Origin: Malacoraja senta
Lineage: Eukaryota
DNA length: 64,000 bases
Reading direction: 5' to 3'
Assembly: GCA_038087875.1 (NCBI GenBank)
Contig: CM075990.1
Coordinates: 5,396,001-5,460,000 of the forward strand
Shown here: positions 19,537-43,789 of the stretch, in pieces
Layout of the letters: each line of letters opens with the position of its first letter
Position numbering within the stretch: the first letter of the stretch is position 1
Notes under the pieces: generated by a model
The model's database searches: none
Seen by the model: the letters and a program-made list of their open reading frames with translations, nothing else
What the model was told of the DNA's origin: nothing
Program-made: the position numbers and the translations under genes

Positions 19537-20725
19537 GTGAGGATCAATTTCTTGTCATCTCCACCTAACTCCCTCAGATTGCAACTCGGGGCTTCAAAAA
19601 CAAACCCACACCGCTCCATCTCAATTTTTTTTCTCCTCTTTACCCTCAAATGTTCAGAACAAACTTTCTTCCGGCGACTTTTTTCCGACTCCGAAATTCC
19701 CCAGCCTTTTTCAGTGTCTGCTTTTGGATTCTCTTCCCGTAGCTCATATCCACATCTGATAAAAAAAACGAGCCCAGTCTCTCTGAGATCCTCTAAGCTG
19801 ACAATTTTCAAGGGTCTCGGCCCCAAAACGTTACCCATTCCTTCTCTCCAGAGACTGTCTGTCCCGCTATGTTACTCCAGCTTTTTGTGTCTATCTTCGG
19901 TTTAAACCGGCATCTGCAGTTCCTTCCAACATACTTTCATGCTTTCCACTAACTTTAAAGTCGTTATTGTTAGACATGCAGGAGCTTCATTGTAAGTGAT
20001 TTACTGTTGAATATGATGTATTTATTAACGTGTTTATGATTTGTTGGGGGGGGTGTTGGGGATGTAAGAGACGATGAGAGATTTTACTGATATGTGAACT
20101 GCTGACTAGTTAAACTCCAAGGTTTATTTCTTCGTGATTCTATCTTAAAAGATATATACCCTAGAATTTATAAAGCGTTTTTTGTTTTCATTCTCAAACA
20201 TACAATGAGGCCAATGCTCCAACTCTGCCATCTCCAAAACACAAGGTAAAGTGTTGTTTTTTTGGTGCGTTCCTTTTTTGCTTAGTCAAGCGCATACATA
20301 GTTAAAAATAGGCTGTGCCTCTTCATCAAACATTAAAATCAGAACAGGCAGATAGATGCAATTTGTAATTTAGGAATGCCTTCATATTGTTTCCACGACT
20401 TTTGCCAAACTCTTTGAATATGGGACCTCAGAATTCTCTCAAAATGCAGCAAGGCTGGGCCTTCAGCAACTCCATTCAATTGCAGAGGCTTTCTTTTTGG
20501 GGCTGGATGGGGTGCTGTTTTGTGGGGGCAAAATGGAGATTCGCAGAAGCATAGATGCATACAACAAAATAGCGGCACTTGGTCCACAGCCTGTGGGGTC
20601 CTGGTGATTCCAGATGCTCCTTAAAAGTTGTGAGGGTACCCGCATTCAACACTTGTACCCGCATCCAACACTTGTCGATACCACTTTCTCAGGTAATTTG
20701 CTCCAGACTTCAACAACCATCTAGA

Positions 20726-21240
20726 AGAGGAGGGCAACAGTAATAGGGGACTCTATGGTTAGGGGGTCGGATAGGCGATTCTGTGGACGCAGTCAGGAGA
20801 CCCGGATGGTAGTGTGCCTCCCTGGTGCCAGGGTCAGGGATGTGTCTGAACGCATCCAAGATATCCTGAAATCGGAGGGAGAGGAGCCTGAGGTTGTGGT
20901 ACATATAGGTACCAATGACATAGGCAGAAAAAGAGAAGAGGTCCTGAAAGGAGAATTTAGGGAGTTGGGAGGAGAGTTAAGGAGAAGGTCCGCAAAGGTA
21001 ACAATCTCAGGATTACTACCTGTGCCACGCGACTGTGAGAGTAGGAATGAAATGAGGTGGAGGATAAATGCGTGGCTGAGGAACTGGTGCAGCGGGCAGG
21101 GATTCAAATTTCTGGATCAATGGAACCTCTTTTGGGGAAGGTGTGACCTGTACAGAAAGGACGGGTTGCACTTGAACCCGAGGGGAACCAATATCCTGGC
21201 GGGGAGATTTGCAAAGGCTACTGGGGAGACTTTAAACTAG
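20726..21240 (+). pseudogene. CR1 ORF1 C-terminal SGNH/GDSL esterase-like domain (5'-truncated)
   Basis: Motifs VIGDS, LPGARVRDV, VHIGTNDI and DGLHLN; stop at 21240. Confidence 0.88.
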
Positions 21241-21245
21241 AACGG

Positions 21246-24188
21246 TTGGGGGGAGGGACTCAAATAGAGAAAGATGGTAGAAAATGTGGGAGGCAGGAGG
21301 CAGAGAAGGGAAGCACTCGGACCCAAAATGTAGGGGAGAAAGAAGAAAAAGATAATAAACAGAGAATAATTGGTGGTGGGTTTCTTAAATGTGTATATAT
21401 TAATGCTAGGAGCATTGTAAGAAAGGTGGATGAGCTTAGAGTCTGGATTGACACCTGGAAGTATGATGTTGTGGCGATCAGTGAAACATGGTTGCAGGAG
21501 GGCTGTGATTGGAAACTAAATATTCCAGGATTTTGTTGCTTCAGGGGTGATAGAATTGGAGGGGCAAGAGGTGGGGGTGTTGCATTGCTTGTCAAGGAAG
21601 ATATTACAGCAGTGCTTTGGCAGGATAGATTAGAGGGCTCGTCTAGGGAGGCTATTTTGGGTGGAGCTGAGAAATGGGAAAGGTGTAGCAACACTTATAG
21701 GGGTGTATTATAGACCGCCAAATGGGGAGTGAGAATTGGAAGAGCAAATATGTAAGGAGATAGCAGATATTAGTAGTAAGCACAAGGTAGTGATTGTGGG
21801 AGATTTCAATTTTCCACACATAGACTGGAAAACACATTCTGTAAAAGGGCTGGATGGTTTGGAGTTTGTAAAATGTGTGCAGGATAGTTTTTTGCAGCAA
21901 TACATAGAGGTACCTACTAGAGAAGGGGCAGTGCTGGACCTCCTGTTAGGAAATGAGACAGGGCAGGTGGTGGAGGTAAGCGTTGGGGAGCACTTCGGGT
22001 CCAGTGATCATAATACCATTAGTTTCAATATAATTATGGAGAGGGTCAGAACTGGACCTAGGGTTGGGATTTTTGATTGGAGAAAGGCTAACTTTGAGGA
22101 GATGCGAAAGGATTTAAAAGGAGTGAATTGGGACGTTGTTTTATGGGAAGGATGTAGAAGAGAAATGGAGGACATTTAAAGGTGAAATTTTAAGAGTACA
22201 GAATCTTTATGTCCCTGTTCGGTTGAAAGGAAATAGTAAAAATTGGAAAGAGCCATGGTTTTCAAGGGAAATTGGACACGGTTCATAAAAAGAGAGAGAT
22301 CTACAATAATTATAGGCAGCATGGAGTAAATGAGGTGCTTGAGGAGTATAAAGAATGTAAAAAGAATATTAAGAAAGAAATTAGAAAAGCTAAAAGAAGA
22401 TATGAGGTTGCGTTGGCAAGTAAGGTGAAAGTAAATCCAAAGGGTTTCTACAGCTATATTAATAGCAAAAGGATAACAAGGAATAAAATTGGTCCATTAG
22501 AGAGTCAGAGTGGACAGCTATCTAAAGAGCCAAAAGAGATGGGGGAGATATTGAACAATTTCTTTTCTTCGGTATTCACCAAGGAGAAGGATATGGAATT
22601 ATGTGAGGTAAGGGAAACAAGCAGAGTAGCAATGGAAACTATGAGATTCAAAGAAGAGGAGGTGCGGACACTTTTGAAAAATATGAAAATGGATAAGTCT
22701 CCAGGTCCCGACAGGATATTCCCGAGGACATTGAGGGAAGTTAGTGTAGAAATAGCAGGGGCTATGACAGAAATATTTCAAATGTCATTAGAAACGGGAA
22801 TAGTGCCGGAGGATTGGCGTATTGCGCATGTTGTTCCGTTGTTTAAAAAGGGTTCTAAGAGTAAACCTAGCAATTATACACCTGTTAGTTTGACGTCAGT
22901 GGTGGGCAAATTAATGGAAAGGATACTTAAAGCTAATATATATAAGCATCTGGATAAGCAGGGTCTGATTAGGAACAGTCAACATAGATTTGTGCCTGGA
23001 AGGTCATGTTTGACTAATCTTCTAGAATTTTTCGAAGAGGTTACTAGGGAAATTGATGAGGGTAAAGCAGTGGATGGTGTCTATATGGACTTCAGTAAGG
23101 CCTTTGACAAGGTTCCTCATGGAAGGTTGGTTAAGAAGATTAAATTGTTGGGTATTAATGGTGGAGTAGCAAGATGGATTCAACAGTGGCTGAATGGGAG
23201 ATGCCAGAGAGTAATGGTGGATGGCTGTTTGTCAGGTTGGAGGCCGGTGACTAGTGAGGTGCCTCAGGGGTCTGTGTTGGGTCCACTGTTGTTTGTCATG
23301 TACATCAATGATCTGGATGATGGTGTGGAAAATTGGATTAGTAAGTATGCAGATGATACTAAGATAGGTGGTGTGGTGAATAATGAAGTAGATTTTCAAA
23401 GTCTACAGAGAGATTTAGGCCATTTGGAAGAGTCGGCTGAAAGATGGCAGATGGAGTTTAATGCTGATAAATGTGAGGTACTACATCTCGGCAGGACAAA
23501 TCAAAATAGGGCGTACATGGTAAATGGTAGAGAATTGAGGAATGCAGTGGAACAGAGGGATCTAGGAATAACTGTGCATAGTTCCCTGAAGGTGGAATCT
23601 CATGTAGATAGGGTGGTAAAGAAAGCTTTTAGTGTGCTGGCCTTTATAAATCAGAGCATTGAATATAGAAGTTGGGATGCAATGTTAAAATTGTACAAGG
23701 CATTGGTGAGGCCAATTCTGGAGTATGGAGTACAATTTTGGTCGCATAATTATAGGAAGGATGTCAACAAAATAGAGAGAGTACAGAGGAGATTTACTAG
23801 AATGTTGCCTGGGTTTCAGCAACTAAGTTACAGAGAAAGGTTGAACAAGTTAGGTCTTTATTCTTTGGAGCGCAGAAGGTTAAGAGGGGACTTGATAGAG
23901 GTCTTTAAAATTATGAGCGGGTTAGACAGAGTTGACGTGGATAAGCTTTTTCCATTGAGAGTAGGGAAGATTCAAACAAGGGGACATGACTTGAGAATTA
24001 AGGGACAGAAGTTTAGGGGTAACATTAGGGGGAACTTCTTTACTCAGAGAGTGGTAGCTGTGTGGAATGAGCTTCCAGTGGAAGTGGTGGAGGCTGGTTT
24101 GATTTTATCCTTTAAAAATAGATTGGATGGGTATATGGACGGGAAAGGAATGGAGGGTTATGGTCTGAGTGCAGGTAGATGGGACTAG
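21246..24188 (+). pseudogene. CR1 ORF2 (APE endonuclease + reverse transcriptase), frameshifted
   Basis: APE motifs YINARSI, ISETWL, RGGGVALL, VGDFNFP, SSDHN. RT motifs KSPGPD, DFSKAFDKVPH, PQGSVLGP, YADD in the 638-aa ORF 22272-24188. Frameshifts near 21655, 22135 and 22270. Confidence 0.93.
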
Positions 24189-35994: not shown

Positions 35995-36092
35995 CCTACA
36001 CTGAACATTTTTTTCTTGTTTATTATATTGTTCGCAGATATATATATATATATATATATATATATCTGCGAACAATATAATATATATATATG

Positions 36093-36213
36093 TTAAGTTA
36101 ATATTTAGACCCTCTTTCAGCTGTGTTCCAGCAATAGTAATAATATTGTAATAATATCATATTTTCACATGTCTCTCATTATTGTTTGTTTTTATGTGCA
36201 TGTATGTGTGTGC

Positions 36214-36247
<34 letters not shown>

Positions 36248-36261
36248 ATATATACACACAC

Positions 36262-36294
<33 letters not shown>

Positions 36295-36408
36295 AATACA
36301 TGCACATAAAAACAAACAATAATGAGAGACATGTGAAAATATGATATTATTACAATATTATTACTATTGCTGGAACACAGCTGAAAGAGGGTCTAAATAT
36401 TAACTTAA
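36093..36408. repeat. 113-bp inverted duplication with a (TA)n/(CA)n spacer
   Basis: 36093-36205 is the reverse complement of 36296-36408, with no mismatch seen by eye. Confidence 0.9.
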
Positions 36409-39400
36409 TATTCCCAGTTACAGGGTTTCTAGCTGAAAATAGAATGGGGAATGGCAATAATGGTTAAATGAAACAATTACATCTATGAGAAAGATCATCA
36501 AAGTTTATGGTTGAATTAAAGAGGTGAAAGGGCAACCAATCTACTGTGTACTACAAACAACCATAGAGTCTAAGGTGAAGATAGGTACAAAAACTGGATT
36601 GACTCAGCAGGTCCGACAGCATATCTGGAAAAACAGAATAAGGAGAAAAGGAGAAAAGACTGAATTGAATGAATGAATGAATGAATAAGTTTATTGGCCA
36701 AGTATTCACATACAAGGAATTTGCCTTGGTGCTCCGCCCGCAAGTGACAACATGACATACAGTGACAGTTAGAAATGACACATAAAACATTAAACATTAA
36801 TAATAAAATAACAAATAATAATAATGAAGAAGGGTCTTGACCCGAAACGTCACCCACTCCTTTTCTTCTTAACCCGGTGAATTACTCCAGTTTCTTGTGT
36901 CTATCTTCAGTTTAAACCAGCATCTGCAATTCCTTTCTACACATACAGTCAATGGTGTATGGAAGAGAACATTTGGAGAGAAGTCTTTGACGAGTGTAAA
37001 AACAATGGGGCTTTGATTATGGGGGATTTCAATTACCCAAATATTAATGGAATGCAATTGTTGTTAAATATGTAGAGGACACAGACTTCCTAAACTGTAT
37101 TCAGGTTGGTATGAAGTCACCCAAACAAGAGGGGAAGCAATTTTCCATTTAGTTTTTGGGAATTAAAGGGGCTGTCCCACTGCAGTGACCTAATTGCCGA
37201 GTTTAGAAGAGTTTAGGAGACTTTGAAAAAATGTCATGTTGAAGACCTCCTTCGACTTCCTCCGACTATGTTGAAGACTAGCTTCGACTAGCTTCTGGAA
37301 AATTGGACACCGAATAGTGAAGAGTGAAGACGACCTCCTTCGATCTCTTTCGACCTCCTTTCGACTATGTTGAAGTCTATCTACGACTACCTTCGACTAC
37401 CTTCGATTACCTTCGACTACCCTCGATTACCTACGAATAACATGCCGACCTACTACATTATCCATGTCTGCCTTTATTTAGAAGTTGGTCGAGGGTATTG
37501 TGATGCTGTAGGTTTAGGTTGGTAAAGATCCTCGTATTGGGGGTGTTGAGTGTAAGGCACGTTCTCTCATATGCTTCAGTCAATTAGTCAACGGTATCTA
37601 AGTAATAACAACTGCAGATGCTGGTTTATACCAAAGCTTGACAAAAAAATGCTGGAGTAACTCAGTGGGCCATGCAGCATATCGGAGAATATTGATAGGT
37701 GATGTTTCGGGTTGGGACCCTTCTTCACACTGATTGCAGTAAGGGGAATGGGAAATAAAAGCTGGAAGAGAAAAGGACAAATCATGGCCAGCCACAAATG
37801 ACCTCAGTCGAGGGGGTTCCCTGATAGTTGGGCAAAGGTGAGACATAGGTGTGAGCCCAAGATATATACATAGTTGCAAACTGTGAAGCTAGTTAATGCA
37901 CTTTTAATGCGGGTGGAGGGGGGTGGAGAAACGAGAGCAAGGTCAACCAAGCTTTAAGGGAGTGGGTGGGAAAATAAGAGAGCGGGGGGTGGAGAAAAAG
38001 GAGGGGGAAGGGGGTGTCTTACAGCTTGACCCCCAATTGTGTACATACACAAGCATTGTTTGTATCTTGCAATTCGACTGGTGATGTTTGGATGAGGTTG
38101 GTTCTAGAGTGTAGGTGATCGTATTTGAACTGTTTTCTATTAGCTGTGAAGACTGACTGCACTGCTCCACGAAGTCTGTTGAAGGTGCAATATTTTGGCA
38201 ATAGAGATTGAGCAATGCATTATGCAGTTTTGTCTGACATTGATCTTCACTGAGATCAGCTCATTTGGTTTGTACCATGGATTGCAGGCAGTTGTGAAGC
38301 AAAAATGAGATGTAGACAAATTTCAGTGGGCAGCTGAATTTGAGGAGAGAGAGTTTCTCTTGTTCTTCCCTCTGAGTAATCCTCTTCATTCACCCCACCA
38401 GGCTCCACATTTAACTGATCAGCATTCACCATTCCATCAACTCCAACAAAATTCCACTACTGTATTCTTCCCTCCTCCTTCAACGCTTCAAGGGGGATTG
38501 CTCCCCTCGCGACGCCTTGGTCTTCAGGCCTCATAAAGCACTTATGGGCCTGCCCCACATACGCAATTTTTTCGCCGACTTGCTGGCACCCGTCATAGTC
38601 GCAGCAGTTTGCCGAAAATTTTCAACATGTTGAAAATCCTGCGGCGACCAGAAAAAGGTACGACTCTTTGGGCGACTACTCACGACCATACAGCCAGATT
38701 AATAAGCAGGTTGAGCAGAAACAAGGAAATTCAAAAAGGGCAGCGCTTTGTATGGAGTCTACAGATTTTGGGCAAGGCATTTGACGAAATCCCACTTGGC
38801 AGATGAGTCAATGAAGTAAAAGCTCATGGATTCAAAAGAGGGTAGAAAATTGGATTGTAAATTGGCTCAGTGATAGAGAGCAAATTGCTGTTTCTGTATC
38901 GAGAAATCTGTAACCAGCGGAGTTCCATGGGGCTCTGCACTTTATACCTTGCTTTGTTTAACATAGGTTATTTTTTTTCCTTTGAGCGCAGGAAGATCAT
39001 AAAGAAGTCTGTAAATTATATAAATATTGGGTTTGTGGAGGAAATCTGATGGTGAAAAGGAAAGGATTAGACTGTAGGAATATGTTGATGGTTGTAGTCA
39101 ATTGGGTGGTAAAGTAGCAAATGGAATTCAATCCAGAGAAGTGAGTGGTAAGGCCTCTGCGGAGATGCAACATAGGCAAGTGAAATACATGACAAATGGG
39201 ATGATACATTGGAGGTGGTCTCGGAAAGGAGGATCCTTCTTAAACTGCGGGGCATCTTGGACAATACAGTTCACCCCCTCCATGGCACACTGGTCAACCT
39301 GAGGAGCACCTTCAGCAACAGACTGGTTCCACCAAGGAGCAGCACAGAATGCCACAAGAGATCCTTTTTCCCTGTGGCTATCAAACTGCATTCCCTCACC

Positions 39401-39659: not shown

Positions 39660-40363
39660 ATAGGTCATCGTTGACTTCACGAAAAACCGGCACAGTCATA
39701 CACCACTACACATTAATGACATTGATGTGGAGTTGGTCAGTAGCACTAAGTTCCTGGGGGTGCAGATCACAAACAGTCTGACCTGGTCACAAAACATCGC
39801 ATCACTAGTTAAGAGAGCGCAGCAGCGTTTGCACTTTCTGCGCCGGATGAGAAGAGCTCACCTCCCCCATCCCGTCCTCACCACTTTTTACAGGGGCACC
39901 ACGGAGAGCATTTTGACCAGCTGCATCTCTGTCTGGTTTGGGGACTGCAAAGCCTCCGACTGGAAGTCCGTGCAGAGAGTGGTGAGGACGGCTGAAAAAA
40001 TCATCGGGACTTCTCTTCCTTCAACGTTGCTTGTCCAAGGCCAACAGCATTATAAAAGACCCCACACATCTCCATCATGGACTGTTCACTCTGCTGCCCT
40101 CGGGCAAAAGGTATCTCAGTATAAGGAGCAGAACGGCCAGGTTCTGCAACAGCTTCTTCCCCCGAGCCATCAGACTCTTGAATTCCATATAATGTGCCAC
40201 CACTATTATCTATTTAATCTTTTTATCTATTTTATCTTTTTATCTATTTTAACCTTTTGTTATTTTATGTTGCACGGTGAGCCAGATGCAAGGAAATTTC
40301 GTTCAGATTTGCATTTGTTGGTGTATTTTTGAATGACAGTAAAGTCTTTGATTGATTGATTGA
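39660..40363 (+). mobile_element. Rex1/Babar-like LINE 3' fragment
   Basis: KFLGVQITNSLTWSQN..KRAQQRLHFLRR..FYRGTTESILT; (ATTG)n tail. Confidence 0.8.
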
Positions 40364-41160: not shown

Positions 41161-42995
41161 TCACTGCCTGAAATGGTTGGACATTTACGCCTTACTTACA
41201 TTTACGTACACATACGTCTACTTGAAGATACATGATTCTCCAGGTAGTGAATCAAGGATTAGATGCTGGGAGTTAGTTGGGTAGCTATTTATTGATCAGG
41301 ACTAATGGAGTGCAGTCATTTTTTTCATGATCTAGCATGATCTGCAATAAATGTGCACTAGGAAAAAAACTGTTAAAACTAACATGTGCCTATACAGAAG
41401 GACCGGATAAACATTGAACTAGTTCTGAACAACACTTTAAAGTTGCTGTGTATCAGCGTGAATAGAGAAGCTTTGTGTGGTGTTTCATTCACAGTGTGTT
41501 TTAATATGGGAGTTCATGGTCATTGCATCAGTAGCTGGAACAAGATATATTTACACCACTGTAATAAATCAATGCTGGTTAAACATTGCAGAGAGCATCA
41601 GTTTGAAAAGATAGCTGCAAGCAAGCTGGAAAATGAGACATTTTGTATCACAAGATAACAAATCATGAGGAAGGTCGTTCAACTCGTCACAGTTCAGCCA
41701 TCCAAAGAGCCACAAATAATCCCATTTCAGTATCCATCTTGCTCCCGAAGGATTCTATCAACAACAACCTGCTTTTATTTGCCACAATATCGCAAGTCAT
41801 TGTGCAGGGGTGTTAGACTAAAATGGGTCAGAGAGTCATAAGACTGGTCTCAGTTTGAATTAAAGCATGTTTAAAAAATAATAATATAGAGAGTTAGTAG
41901 ATGTTGGCATCTGAACCTTTCCCGTATAAATTTACTAGCAAAGAAAGAAACTATCATTGGTCGGATAGTCGGCGACTAAATCGTCACCCCCACCTGGTTT
42001 GCCCGGTGAGGAGGGGGCTGTGGCCCCCCAGCAGGACCAAAAATAAGACCTGCCAAAGGGTGGATGAGCTTCCAGCGAGTCAACAGCCATCCACACTTCA
42101 GTAGAAATTGCGACCACTGTCGTACATGGCATTGTAAGGAATGATGATAAAGCGCACACACCAAAATCCTATACTTCCAGCGGCGGGAACTGGACAGAGA
42201 TGTGTGGTTCGTCCGTCACCGTTCCTGTTGGAAACCAGCACCACTGCGTCGCTAATGTTTTCAACAATGTTGAATGAATGACTCTTCATCACAATACAGG
42301 GTGTCGGGGAGATTCACTGCGATGTTGTCTGGGTCCATCAAGACTCAAAACGCTCAATAACATTCACGACAAAGCAACTTAGTTGCTTAGTACACAATAC
42401 ATCGGCCTTACTCTCTACTTTCACTGTATTTACAAATGTAATACTAAAAGGCATAGTGACACAGTGGCGCAGCTGGCAAACTGGGACAGCCCCATAAGTT
42501 CATAGCGCCTTATACCCAGGTTCGATCCTGACCCCTGGTGCTGTCTGCGTGGAGTGTACACTTTTTCCAGGTGCTCCGGTTTCCTCCCACATCCCAAAGC
42601 CGTGCAGGTTTGTAAGTTAATTGGCCTTTGTACATTGCCCCTAGTGTGTAGGGAGCGGAAGGAGGGTAACATGGAACTAGTGTGAACAGGGGAACGATGG
42701 TCAGTGTGGACTCGCTGTGCCATTGGTCTGTTTCCATGCTGTATCATGAAACTAACCTAAACTATTACAAATAACACAGCATTTGCTAATCAAGGCTTTT
42801 TTTTGAGAAGAAGATCCGTATCTGTAATCTTGACCATCCAAAGGACCAGGTCAACAGATGAATGGTAGCATTATCACTTTTAGGTTTCCCTCCTAGTGAC
42901 ACGTTATCCGGTTTTATGAGGTTATTGCTGTTCCTTTATCATTGCTGGGTCTAAATCCAGGAATTACCTAACCAACAATGGTTGGTTAACCAATA

Positions 42996-43298
42996 GGGCA
43001 GCATGGTGGCACAGTGGTAGAGTTGCTGCCTCATAGCGCCAGAGACCCGGGTTCAATCCTGACTATGGGTGCTGTCTGTACGGAGTTTGTACGTTCTCCC
43101 CTTCACCACATGGGCTTCCCCTGCGTGCTCTGGTTTCCTTTCACACTACAAAGGCGTACGGGTTTGTAGGTTAATTTGGCTTTGGTAAAAATTGTCCCTA
43201 TTGCGTAAGATAGTGCTGCCAGGGGATCACATGGACACAGTGGGCCGAAGGGCCTGTTTCCGCACTGTATCTCTAAACTAAATTAAACTAAATTAAAC
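42996..43298 (+). mobile_element. V-SINE (HE1-like) whose tail hosts the ribozyme insert
   Basis: A/B boxes and V-domain; the (CTAAA)n tail resumes at 43442-43463. Confidence 0.88.
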
Positions 43299-43441
43299 CG
43301 ATCTAACCTCGCTCGTGTGTCAGATGACATATTGCTCGTTGTTGGCTCCTGTCGTCGTCCAACATGTTGACAGAATTGGTCGCCCAACGCATCACAGAGT
43401 GCACCGGAGATCGCCACGAGGAGGCTTCTGTCACGATCCCC
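43299..43441 (-). mobile_element. ~143 bp ribozyme-headed retroposed insert
   Basis: Interrupts the (CTAAA)n tail of a V-SINE. Flanked by ATTAAAC at 43292-43298 and 43442-43448 (extends to 17 bp with one mismatch). The 5' boundary equals ribozyme G1. Confidence 0.7.
43368..43441 (-). ncRNA. HDV-like (delta-like) self-cleaving ribozyme
   Basis: Minus strand: P1 GGGGAUC/GAUCUCC; P2 UGACAGAA/UUCUGUCA; P3 GCC/GGC; L3 UCCUCGU; P1.1 CC/GG; variable P4; J4/2 A-C-C-A-A with the catalytic C at 43379. Element order is that of the nested double pseudoknot. Confidence 0.88.
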
Positions 43442-43789
43442 ATTAAACTAAACTAAACTAAACAACACTCCTGGAGTATCCTTACCACACTGAGTGGTTT
43501 AACAAGACAACTTGTCTTCACGTTCTCAAGAGAAAGCAGACAGGAGGGATAACTACCGGCTCAGCAGTAACACTCACATCCTGGGACCAAACAAAAGTTG
43601 TCGCGCTTTGTTTTAGATAATGCTTTGGAGTATTCATATTTGAATGAAAATAATATTCTGTATTTTTATTAAATGAAATACCATACCATGTACACTTGTA
43701 AAGTAGATTTTGATCGCATTACATCCAACAAAGGTAACATTGAAACTTACAAATAACCATTAAAAATACCACACAGTGTGGCTGCGTAA

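Follow-up and report, generated by a model that had tools for sequence, protein, structure and literature searches.

A tiny ribozyme-headed element in Malacoraja senta derived from a Vingi-type LINE, and its probable link to the mammalian CPEB3 ribozyme

The insert and its target site

The window analysed here is a 64,000-nucleotide (nt) stretch of Malacoraja senta DNA (assembly GCA_038087875.1, contig CM075990.1, positions 5,396,001 to 5,460,000, forward strand), and its subject is a short minus-strand insert, initially annotated at 43299..43441, that begins with a ribozyme fold of the hepatitis delta virus (HDV) type. The insert lies in an abundant plus-strand repeat resembling a short interspersed nuclear element (SINE) (42993..43298; repeat families D13, D15, D16 and D18), whose simple-repeat tail, reaching to about 43462, was the insertion target. 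Comparison with its relatives showed that the insert is a decayed, old copy of a tiny non-autonomous element made by internal deletion of a Vingi-type long interspersed nuclear element (LINE).

Family alignments place this bipartite element at 43309..43441 on the minus strand, 133 nt in the window copy as against about 147 nt in the family. The 5' boundary first proposed, G1 at 43441, therefore stands, whereas the far end does not, given that family matches span nt 1-131 to 1-134 of the 143-nt query and family sequence stops at 43309, a position that is also the start of four listed contig pieces from two public runs. The 10 nt at 43299..43308 are either extra bases or an altered stretch of a longer duplication. 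The duplicated target reported in the repeat tail was recovered on the plus strand as 7 nt at 43292..43298 and 43442..43448, the left copy being of low complexity, as had been cautioned.

Within the element, the ribozyme fold (43368..43441) is followed after 2 nt by a remnant of the parent start codon (ATG, 43363..43365), which in L065, a long copy with both ends, a duplication and the ATG likewise 2 nt behind P2, is in frame with the APE domain with one intervening stop. The deletion junction between the 5' and 3' parts of the LINE is at 43330..43332, and the last ~22 nt of the parent (43309..43330) hold the 3' arm of a terminal helix, the stop codon of the open reading frame (ORF) and a terminal motif, all on the minus strand. 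About 59 nt follow the fold, instead of the roughly 70 first estimated. No second family copy was found within the window and no clear empty-site allele in the contigs of two runs; the runs listed included no RNA run for expression.

The ribozyme fold

The minus-strand fold is of the HDV/CPEB3 type, with a predicted cut 5' of G43441. P1 (43435..43441 with 43406-43412) has 7 base pairs (bp), six Watson-Crick and one G-U, and is joined by a single-nucleotide J1/2 (43434) to an 8-bp P2 (43426..43433 with 43368-43375). The P3-L3-P3 segment (43413..43425) has a 3-bp P3 and a 7-nt L3 (43416-43422) whose CC can pair with GG 43404-43405 as P1.1, a P4 remnant occupies 43380..43403, and the J4/2 C-C-A-A (43376..43379) abuts the 3' strand of P2. 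The nested double pseudoknot P1/P2/P3/P1.1 of HDV-like ribozymes is thus complete, as the initial annotation, which also likened L3 to that of genomic HDV, had described, and a fold descriptor found it as the sole match on both strands of the window (score 33.8), none of 20 dinucleotide-shuffled windows reaching a score of 24 (best 20.4). The cytosine proposed as catalytic, C43379, also occupies the register predicted for it: in a solved relative the catalytic residue is C57, and A60 behind it makes contact with the C18:G28 pair (PMC13635239), and here the conserved A43376 lies three bases on, the C18-G28 pair being likewise present. The G-C pair that opens P1, previously raised as a caveat, is no objection: most copies of the family have it, as do L076 and the active human CPEB3 variant U36C, which is described as three-fold faster in its native context (PMC10919898) and slower with a neutral leader (PMC8233481).

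Several observations weigh against a functional ribozyme at this particular locus. The covariance-model search proposed earlier returned the CPEB3 ribozyme (RF00622) as the best match of the insert, at 21.5 bits against a cut-off of 35; the HDV model was absent among its six Rfam matches, and no Rfam family passed its cut-off anywhere in the window. The weak pairing of P4 already noted (-2.7 kcal/mol) results from a 14-nt deletion specific to the window copy that removed the P4 5' strand, so that P1 and the catalytic C are 26 nt apart, versus 40 nt in L021, where P4 is present; a linker of 7-8 nt is all that occupies the P4 position in family F (see below) and in L101. The J1/2 base is a G, found at position 8 in three of 53 copies (A in 47 of 53), and it extends P1 and, in a nested-only model, lowers the P3 pair probability to 0.00, versus 0.20-0.25 in L021. 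Because P4 is lost, a base favouring a competing helix is gained and the terminal helix is damaged, the window copy is probably weak or inactive, with a predicted misfold. The nested folding energy, no better than that of shuffles (z -0.89), is uninformative because pseudoknots lie outside the nested model.

A family of internally deleted copies

A genome search with the insert gave 845 candidates, and among the 40 scored, 39 besides the window copy were 82-86% identical; a 24-nt core had 691 genome matches at ≤2 mismatches and its reversed control none. There are therefore about 700 copies of this ~147-nt element, here called family A. A set of 53 distinct copies was compiled from 60 loci by removing seven (four from the same place and three segmental duplicates), half of the loci having been picked as best full-length matches. 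In this set G1 is a G in 45 copies and conservation stops there, no upstream base exceeding 30/53. Target duplications were called for 48 of the 53 copies; their median length is 11 nt, and 44 of them have the boundary no more than 2 nt from G1. Target preference is weak (T at -1 in 30/53, A at -3 in 27/53). G1 is thus the 5' end of a retroposed element with hundreds of copies starting at the ribozyme, as anticipated. Three points weigh on the other side: the duplication search covered offsets -2 to +8 only, with no shuffle control; its result at the window copy was a spurious match of low complexity; and C-A-A replaces C-N-A-A in 6 of 50 short copies, a subfamily represented by L039, yet these spread. 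Mean divergence from the majority is 5.2% in 50 short copies (3.4% without CpG) and 6.8% in the window copy (4.8% without CpG), regional divergence among short copies giving no clean test of selection.

The element consists of the first ~124 nt and the last ~24 nt of a ~3-kb LINE of the same genome, with a single ORF that combines an APE endonuclease with a reverse transcriptase. The short copy L007 aligns through nt 1-124 with the LINE start in L061, L062 and L065, and through nt 126-149 with the LINE end in six of 12 long loci under comparison (L065, L066, L069-L072), the other long loci being shortened, interrupted or too diverged to list. When 30 loci were picked by the core pattern alone, 27 were short, two continued into the LINE and one was interrupted. 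With both termini only, its own tail, target duplications and many copies, the family has the features of a bipartite non-autonomous LINE derivative; it is not a SINE proper, which would carry a tRNA, 5S or 7SL head, since its head is the LINE 5' end, and no tRNA or over-cut-off Rfam match was found. The alternatives first offered, a SINE-like family or the 5' end of an RTE-like LINE, therefore merge into one entity, because the short family arose by internal deletion from a LINE that begins with the ribozyme; the RTE-like part did not hold. In one long family A copy the ribozyme-bearing 5' end is inverted relative to the rest (L072:6-110).

The parent LINE

The long sequence behind the two continuing core-pattern loci encodes both enzymes, and a reverse transcriptase probe of the genome gave 176 candidates. 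Stops and frameshifts interrupt the parent copies, and APE and reverse transcriptase domains of the parent ORF exceed the Pfam cut-off. The RNase H family is absent from the three ORF pieces scanned (APE, reverse transcriptase and C-terminus), and an RNase H accession is found in none of 40 homologues, many of which are 930-1050 amino acids long on 3.0-3.4-kb contigs; those named come from sea urchins, an icefish, crustaceans, a tubeworm and a psyllid. In viral contigs nothing related to the parent protein was found, and a PDB search with it returned distant L1 and R2 proteins only.

Vingi elements are described as compact, with a single ORF and no RNase H (PMC13708176), and a Vingi ORF of 993 amino acids is reported (PMC3708506). 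Because the parent has a compact single ORF of about 990 amino acids with APE and reverse transcriptase and without RNase H, on ~3 kb, its sequence fits the Vingi type and not an RTE-like LINE. The named element Vingi-2_Gav starts with the same type of fold and, judged by eye, its 5' end is close to those of sister families and shares the architecture of family A.

Covariation across Vingi-type heads

Scanning metagenome contigs by protein yielded 52 loci. Under a strict descriptor five had a sense-strand fold, of which four, directly upstream of the ORF, were judged real and one (L101) spurious; in L104 the fold lies 140 nt ahead of the APE start (tblastn). Further heads among the 52 loci were recognised by eye. 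In an alignment of 13 heads from this genome and the metagenome contigs, 92.6% of cells are paired, compared with 39-53% in slid-register controls, and 13 of 20 pairs changed on both sides, which none of 500 shuffles matched. The helix covariation sought at the outset is thus present as two-sided compensatory change, in rows chosen for fit. A C with an A two or three bases on directly precedes P2 in all 18 heads compared. The L084 head appears by eye to have an L3 insertion (about 737-856), and the L074 and L077 heads an insertion in the P1 5' strand.

Against this reading, the 13 aligned heads were selected for fitting the fold, two of them from one family; several relatives (e.g. L075, L081, L089, L090, L107-L110) have no such fold upstream of the ORF; and the first P1.1 pair holds in 5 of 13 rows, a pair described as likewise weak in CPEB3-type ribozymes (PMC13635239).

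Relation to the CPEB3 ribozyme

Family A is more distant from RF00622 (21.5-34.5 bits; L021 25.6, L039 34.5) and its window copy does not reach 35 bits, whereas sister families do. Three of 20 protein-picked loci pass the cut-off (L104 63.2, L079 59.0 and L078 43.3 bits), and in an RF00622 search of this genome, in which 59 of 102,231 candidates were scored, 39 of 56 among the matches listed pass 35 bits (best 64.2), compared with matches in 0 of 14 control genomes. Fetching 40 of the 56 listed matches yielded six further families, B to G; tblastn connects B and C to an APE ORF, and B has heads of up to 64.2 bits.

The sequences of Vingi-2_Gav (nt 2-74) and SINE2-1_AMi are printed in the supplement of PMC5786205, in which CPEB3 has no occurrence. 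Matches to the Rfam CPEB3 consensus, counted by eye, are 38/40 over positions 2-41 plus all of the last 14 for Vingi-2_Gav, from gharial; 57/66, with the whole P4 stem, equal P4 length and four of the differences in the L4 loop, for SINE2-1_AMi, from alligator; and 36 of the first 38 positions for L104. One difference that recurs is a U at 9, described as a natural mammalian CPEB3 variant compatible with activity (PMC8233481). No RF00622 match, among the 56 listed, lies near the eight CPEB RRM matches of this genome, and the human genome is reported to retain a Vingi trace, X12_LINE (PMC5753468). This sequence likeness makes it probable that the mammalian CPEB3 ribozyme was exapted from the 5' end of a Vingi element, in which case the direction would have been from mobile element to single intronic copy.

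As an alternative, the likeness could be convergence forced by the fold, or a bias of selection from searching with the CPEB3 model; we consider this unlikely. Families B to G were indeed found with that model, the high-scoring heads do not form one clade in the APE tree, and a phage ribozyme (L129, 28.2 bits) also has a G-rich P1, a single-A J1/2 and GUC after P1; 28.2 bits is the highest score among phage HDV-like ribozymes, a control with 20 of 116 loci scored and biased to another P3. On the other hand, L104, L079 and L078 were found via protein and not via the RNA model. These ribozymes are free to differ in the sequence of P2, P3 and P4, yet Vingi-2_Gav, SINE2-1_AMi and family D agree with CPEB3 in all three, the P4 stem included. 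The core pattern, moreover, has no match in viral contigs and one in 596 Gb of prokaryote contigs, and that one is a Vingi head. This match (L125), on a 1-kb contig of an archaeal metagenome-assembled genome, carries the head and the APE start, is nearly identical to L078 and is probably eukaryotic contamination.

The sister families differ in age and completeness. Family B (L242-L245, L247-L249, L251, L252, L258, L262, L263; 3' ends L288-L291) is a young full-length ~3.1-kb Vingi-type LINE, with copies mostly 95-99% alike that start at G1, 10-11-nt duplications in the two copies checked and the terminal helix. Family D comprises five old copies (L253, L255, L257, L264, L266) with a P4 stem nearly of CPEB3 consensus (L253 54/67, L257 51/60 positions, as counted by eye), which end ~30 nt past the fold with no visible tail or duplication; no same-orientation ORF was found within 1.7 kb downstream of six places, and a Vingi origin is assigned to it because of its likeness to ORF-linked heads such as L079. 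Families C (L246, L250, L254, L276/L292), E (L256, L259, L265, L267, L279) and G (L278) are further CPEB3-type heads, many copies being 5'-only fragments, which is unusual for LINEs; L276 continues into an APE ORF (tblastn) and L278 appears by eye to do likewise. By eye, the "unknown 3' part" of SINE2-1_AMi can be read as a 6-bp hairpin, then the Vingi terminal motif, then a tail (PMC5786205 supplement), which gives the element the appearance of a mini-Vingi of ~100 nt, its ribozyme damaged in L3 and P1, behind a tRNA head.

A helix joining the two ends

Folding of a short copy indicated that the bases just past the ribozyme pair with the 3' end, in a helix of 9-13 bp that connects the 5' and 3' ends of the LINE and spans 2.7-3 kb in full-length elements. 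In the window copy its minus-strand arms correspond to 43353..43364 and 43318-43329, the latter (3') arm being the damaged one. In five of six full-length LINEs, four of these five sharing one data set, and in three of four short copies, the helix is better than at least 499 of 500 shuffles. For the 5' arm the terminus offers the best or nearly the best pairing partner, since of about 290 internal windows 0-3 do as well (0-14 for the 3' arm alone). Arms differ by family and change together (L074 versus L078 and L082), the terminal motif always adjoins the helix end, families B and C have the helix in the same register, and the short families A and F retain it (0 of 500 shuffles as good). Therefore the pairing covaries, and its role may be to join the ends.

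Not all elements conform. In L076 the terminal helix is not significant (94 of 500 shuffles do as well), in the window copy it is lost (114 of 500), and L077 and L118 were excluded from the test since no 3' end was found; in family B, stronger chance partners occur in the flanks at two of four loci.

Family F (L260, L261, L268-L275, L277, L280, L281) is a second mini-element, ~190 nt long, with an AAG tail, 10-12-nt duplications and 77 pattern matches. Its head is a ~53-nt minimal fold without P4, and its terminal helix has 12 bp.

Other features of the window

The insert had been placed antisense within an intron of a TMEM150A-like gene, which proved unsupported. The Frag1/TMEM150-like coding sequence on the plus strand, represented by its last two coding exons (563-781 and 1945-2190), stops at 2190, 41 kb away, and near the insert neither a third Frag1/TMEM150-like copy nor a host-gene domain was found. 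Beyond 20 kb only retrotransposon-type domains exceed the cut-off, in a scan of 150 of 261 unmasked ORFs that could miss short or non-coding exons. The Frag1/TMEM150-like gene occurs twice on the contig, 43.6 kb apart, by tandem duplication or as an assembly artefact. The window also contains two plus-strand LINE fragments, one with esterase and APE (20725-22176) and one with an ALKBH8_N-type C-terminal domain (39664-40329), and a 161-nt inverted repeat with perfect spacing and 91% complementarity (36090-36411).

Discussion

The explanation that best accounts for these results, and which we hold with high confidence, is that the insert belongs to an internally deleted, ribozyme-headed Vingi-type mini-element. 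A copy would be transcribed by read-through from its neighbours or from an internal promoter, and the ribozyme would then remove everything 5' of G1, giving the RNA a uniform 5' end, as the boundaries and the covariation suggest. The 9-13-bp helix would join the bases behind the ribozyme to those before the terminal motif and bring the ends together, and the parent APE-reverse transcriptase protein could bind this end module in trans and insert the RNA by target-primed reverse transcription. Binding in trans and target-primed reverse transcription are established LINE biochemistry. Insertion would leave the short tandem tail and the ~11-nt duplication, footprints that are present. The mini-element has been reduced to the ribozyme, the two arms of the helix and the terminal motif, suggesting these parts as the signals required in cis.

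The 5' fold might instead be a protein-binding, promoter or translation element, with an internal promoter starting at G1 and with cleavage slow or irrelevant. In L1Tc/NARTc the same 77 nt are described as serving as both promoter and ribozyme (PMC3383444), the subfamily missing one J4/2 base has spread nonetheless, and heads of deep lineages share sequence beyond what pairing requires. The invariant C and A before P2 in 18 of 18 heads speaks for catalysis, as do sister heads nearly identical to the CPEB3 ribozyme, whose ancestral form is reported to cleave to 92% in vitro (PMC8233481), and we judge this alternative improbable. Still less probable is a parent in the RTE or Ingi clade, which would make the ribozyme a known feature: both clades are named among those that bear ribozymes and those that make bipartite elements (PMC5786205), and an APE tree of 35 rows without named Vingi or RTE references left its base unresolved with a long outgroup, which weighs against our assignment, whereas the single ~990-amino-acid ORF without RNase H on ~3 kb fits the Vingi description (PMC13708176, PMC3708506) and sister heads match Vingi-2_Gav. 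A chance fold in a random insert, to which the unremarkable nested folding energy might point, is refuted by the shuffled windows, the hundreds of copies starting at G1 and the covariation.

We consider it probable, with somewhat less assurance than the origin of the insert itself, that the Vingi clade is headed by a CPEB3-type ribozyme, that its RNA is closed by a covarying 5'-3' helix forming the cis module kept by mini-elements, and that the CPEB3 ribozyme, for which no relative outside mammals is known so far, is a domesticated Vingi or mini-Vingi 5' end from a mammalian ancestor. A literature search found no ribozyme, terminal helix or CPEB3 link for Vingi, with patents outside its scope and with elements called Ingi in Ruminski 2011, Kojima 2011 and Webb 2009 possibly including Vingi. 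The sole paper naming both "vingi" and "cpeb3" means Tvingi, and "Vingi" does not occur in the text available of a 2026 preprint. HDV-like ribozymes have been noted in some LINEs and SINEs (PMC6765202), and CPEB3-related folds outside mammals have been found by structure (PMC8256844). Within the reach of that search, a Vingi ribozyme, a covarying end-joining helix kept by mini-elements and sister heads passing the "mammal-only" CPEB3 Rfam cut-off thus appear to be new.

The window copy alone is an ordinary dead insertion, and the weight of the finding lies in the Vingi-CPEB3 link and the terminal helix. A Vingi origin, if true, gives the CPEB3 ribozyme both an origin and outgroups, and is testable on existing genomes, and a ribozyme combined with an end-to-end helix would explain the two-ended mini-elements of Vingi, a bias left open by Kojima 2018. 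Anolis Vingi-1 is under development as a gene-insertion tool whose templates lie between its 5' and 3' untranslated regions (PMC13708176), and a natural ~150-nt minimal template indicates cis parts that probably matter for Vingi-based insertion.

Comparison with known systems

Ribozyme-headed deletion derivatives are a known kind, represented by NARTc and the R2 SIDEs. Bipartite non-autonomous Vingi elements are also on record: the Vingi-1_EE derivatives (Kojima 2011, as cited in PMC5786205) likewise consist of the 5' and 3' ends of a Vingi LINE, via internal deletion. The host here is, in contrast, of cartilaginous-fish type, and the available text of PMC5786205 attributes no ribozyme to Vingi, listing R1, R2, R4, RTE and Ingi, together with LOA, as ribozyme-bearing clades, and mentions no terminal helix.

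The CPEB3 ribozyme (RF00622) has the architecture of all heads and is nearly identical in sequence to the sister heads of families B, C, D, E and G, L104, L079, Vingi-2_Gav and SINE2-1_AMi, but it is a single conserved intronic copy, and family A differs from it by a CC/GG P1.1 and a reversed middle P3 pair. The R2 SIDEs of Drosophila are similarly internally deleted, ribozyme-headed and moved in trans, whereas they are site-specific in ribosomal DNA and depend on a restriction-like endonuclease (PMC3414825). The closest working model is NARTc with L1Tc (and RIME with ingi) in trypanosomes, where the first 77 nt, which bear the ribozyme, and the last 30 nt are common to the short element and the LINE, with the cut at +1; those elements belong to the Ingi clade with RNase H, the short one has 263 nt, and both ribozyme activity and promoter have been demonstrated there (PMC3383444).
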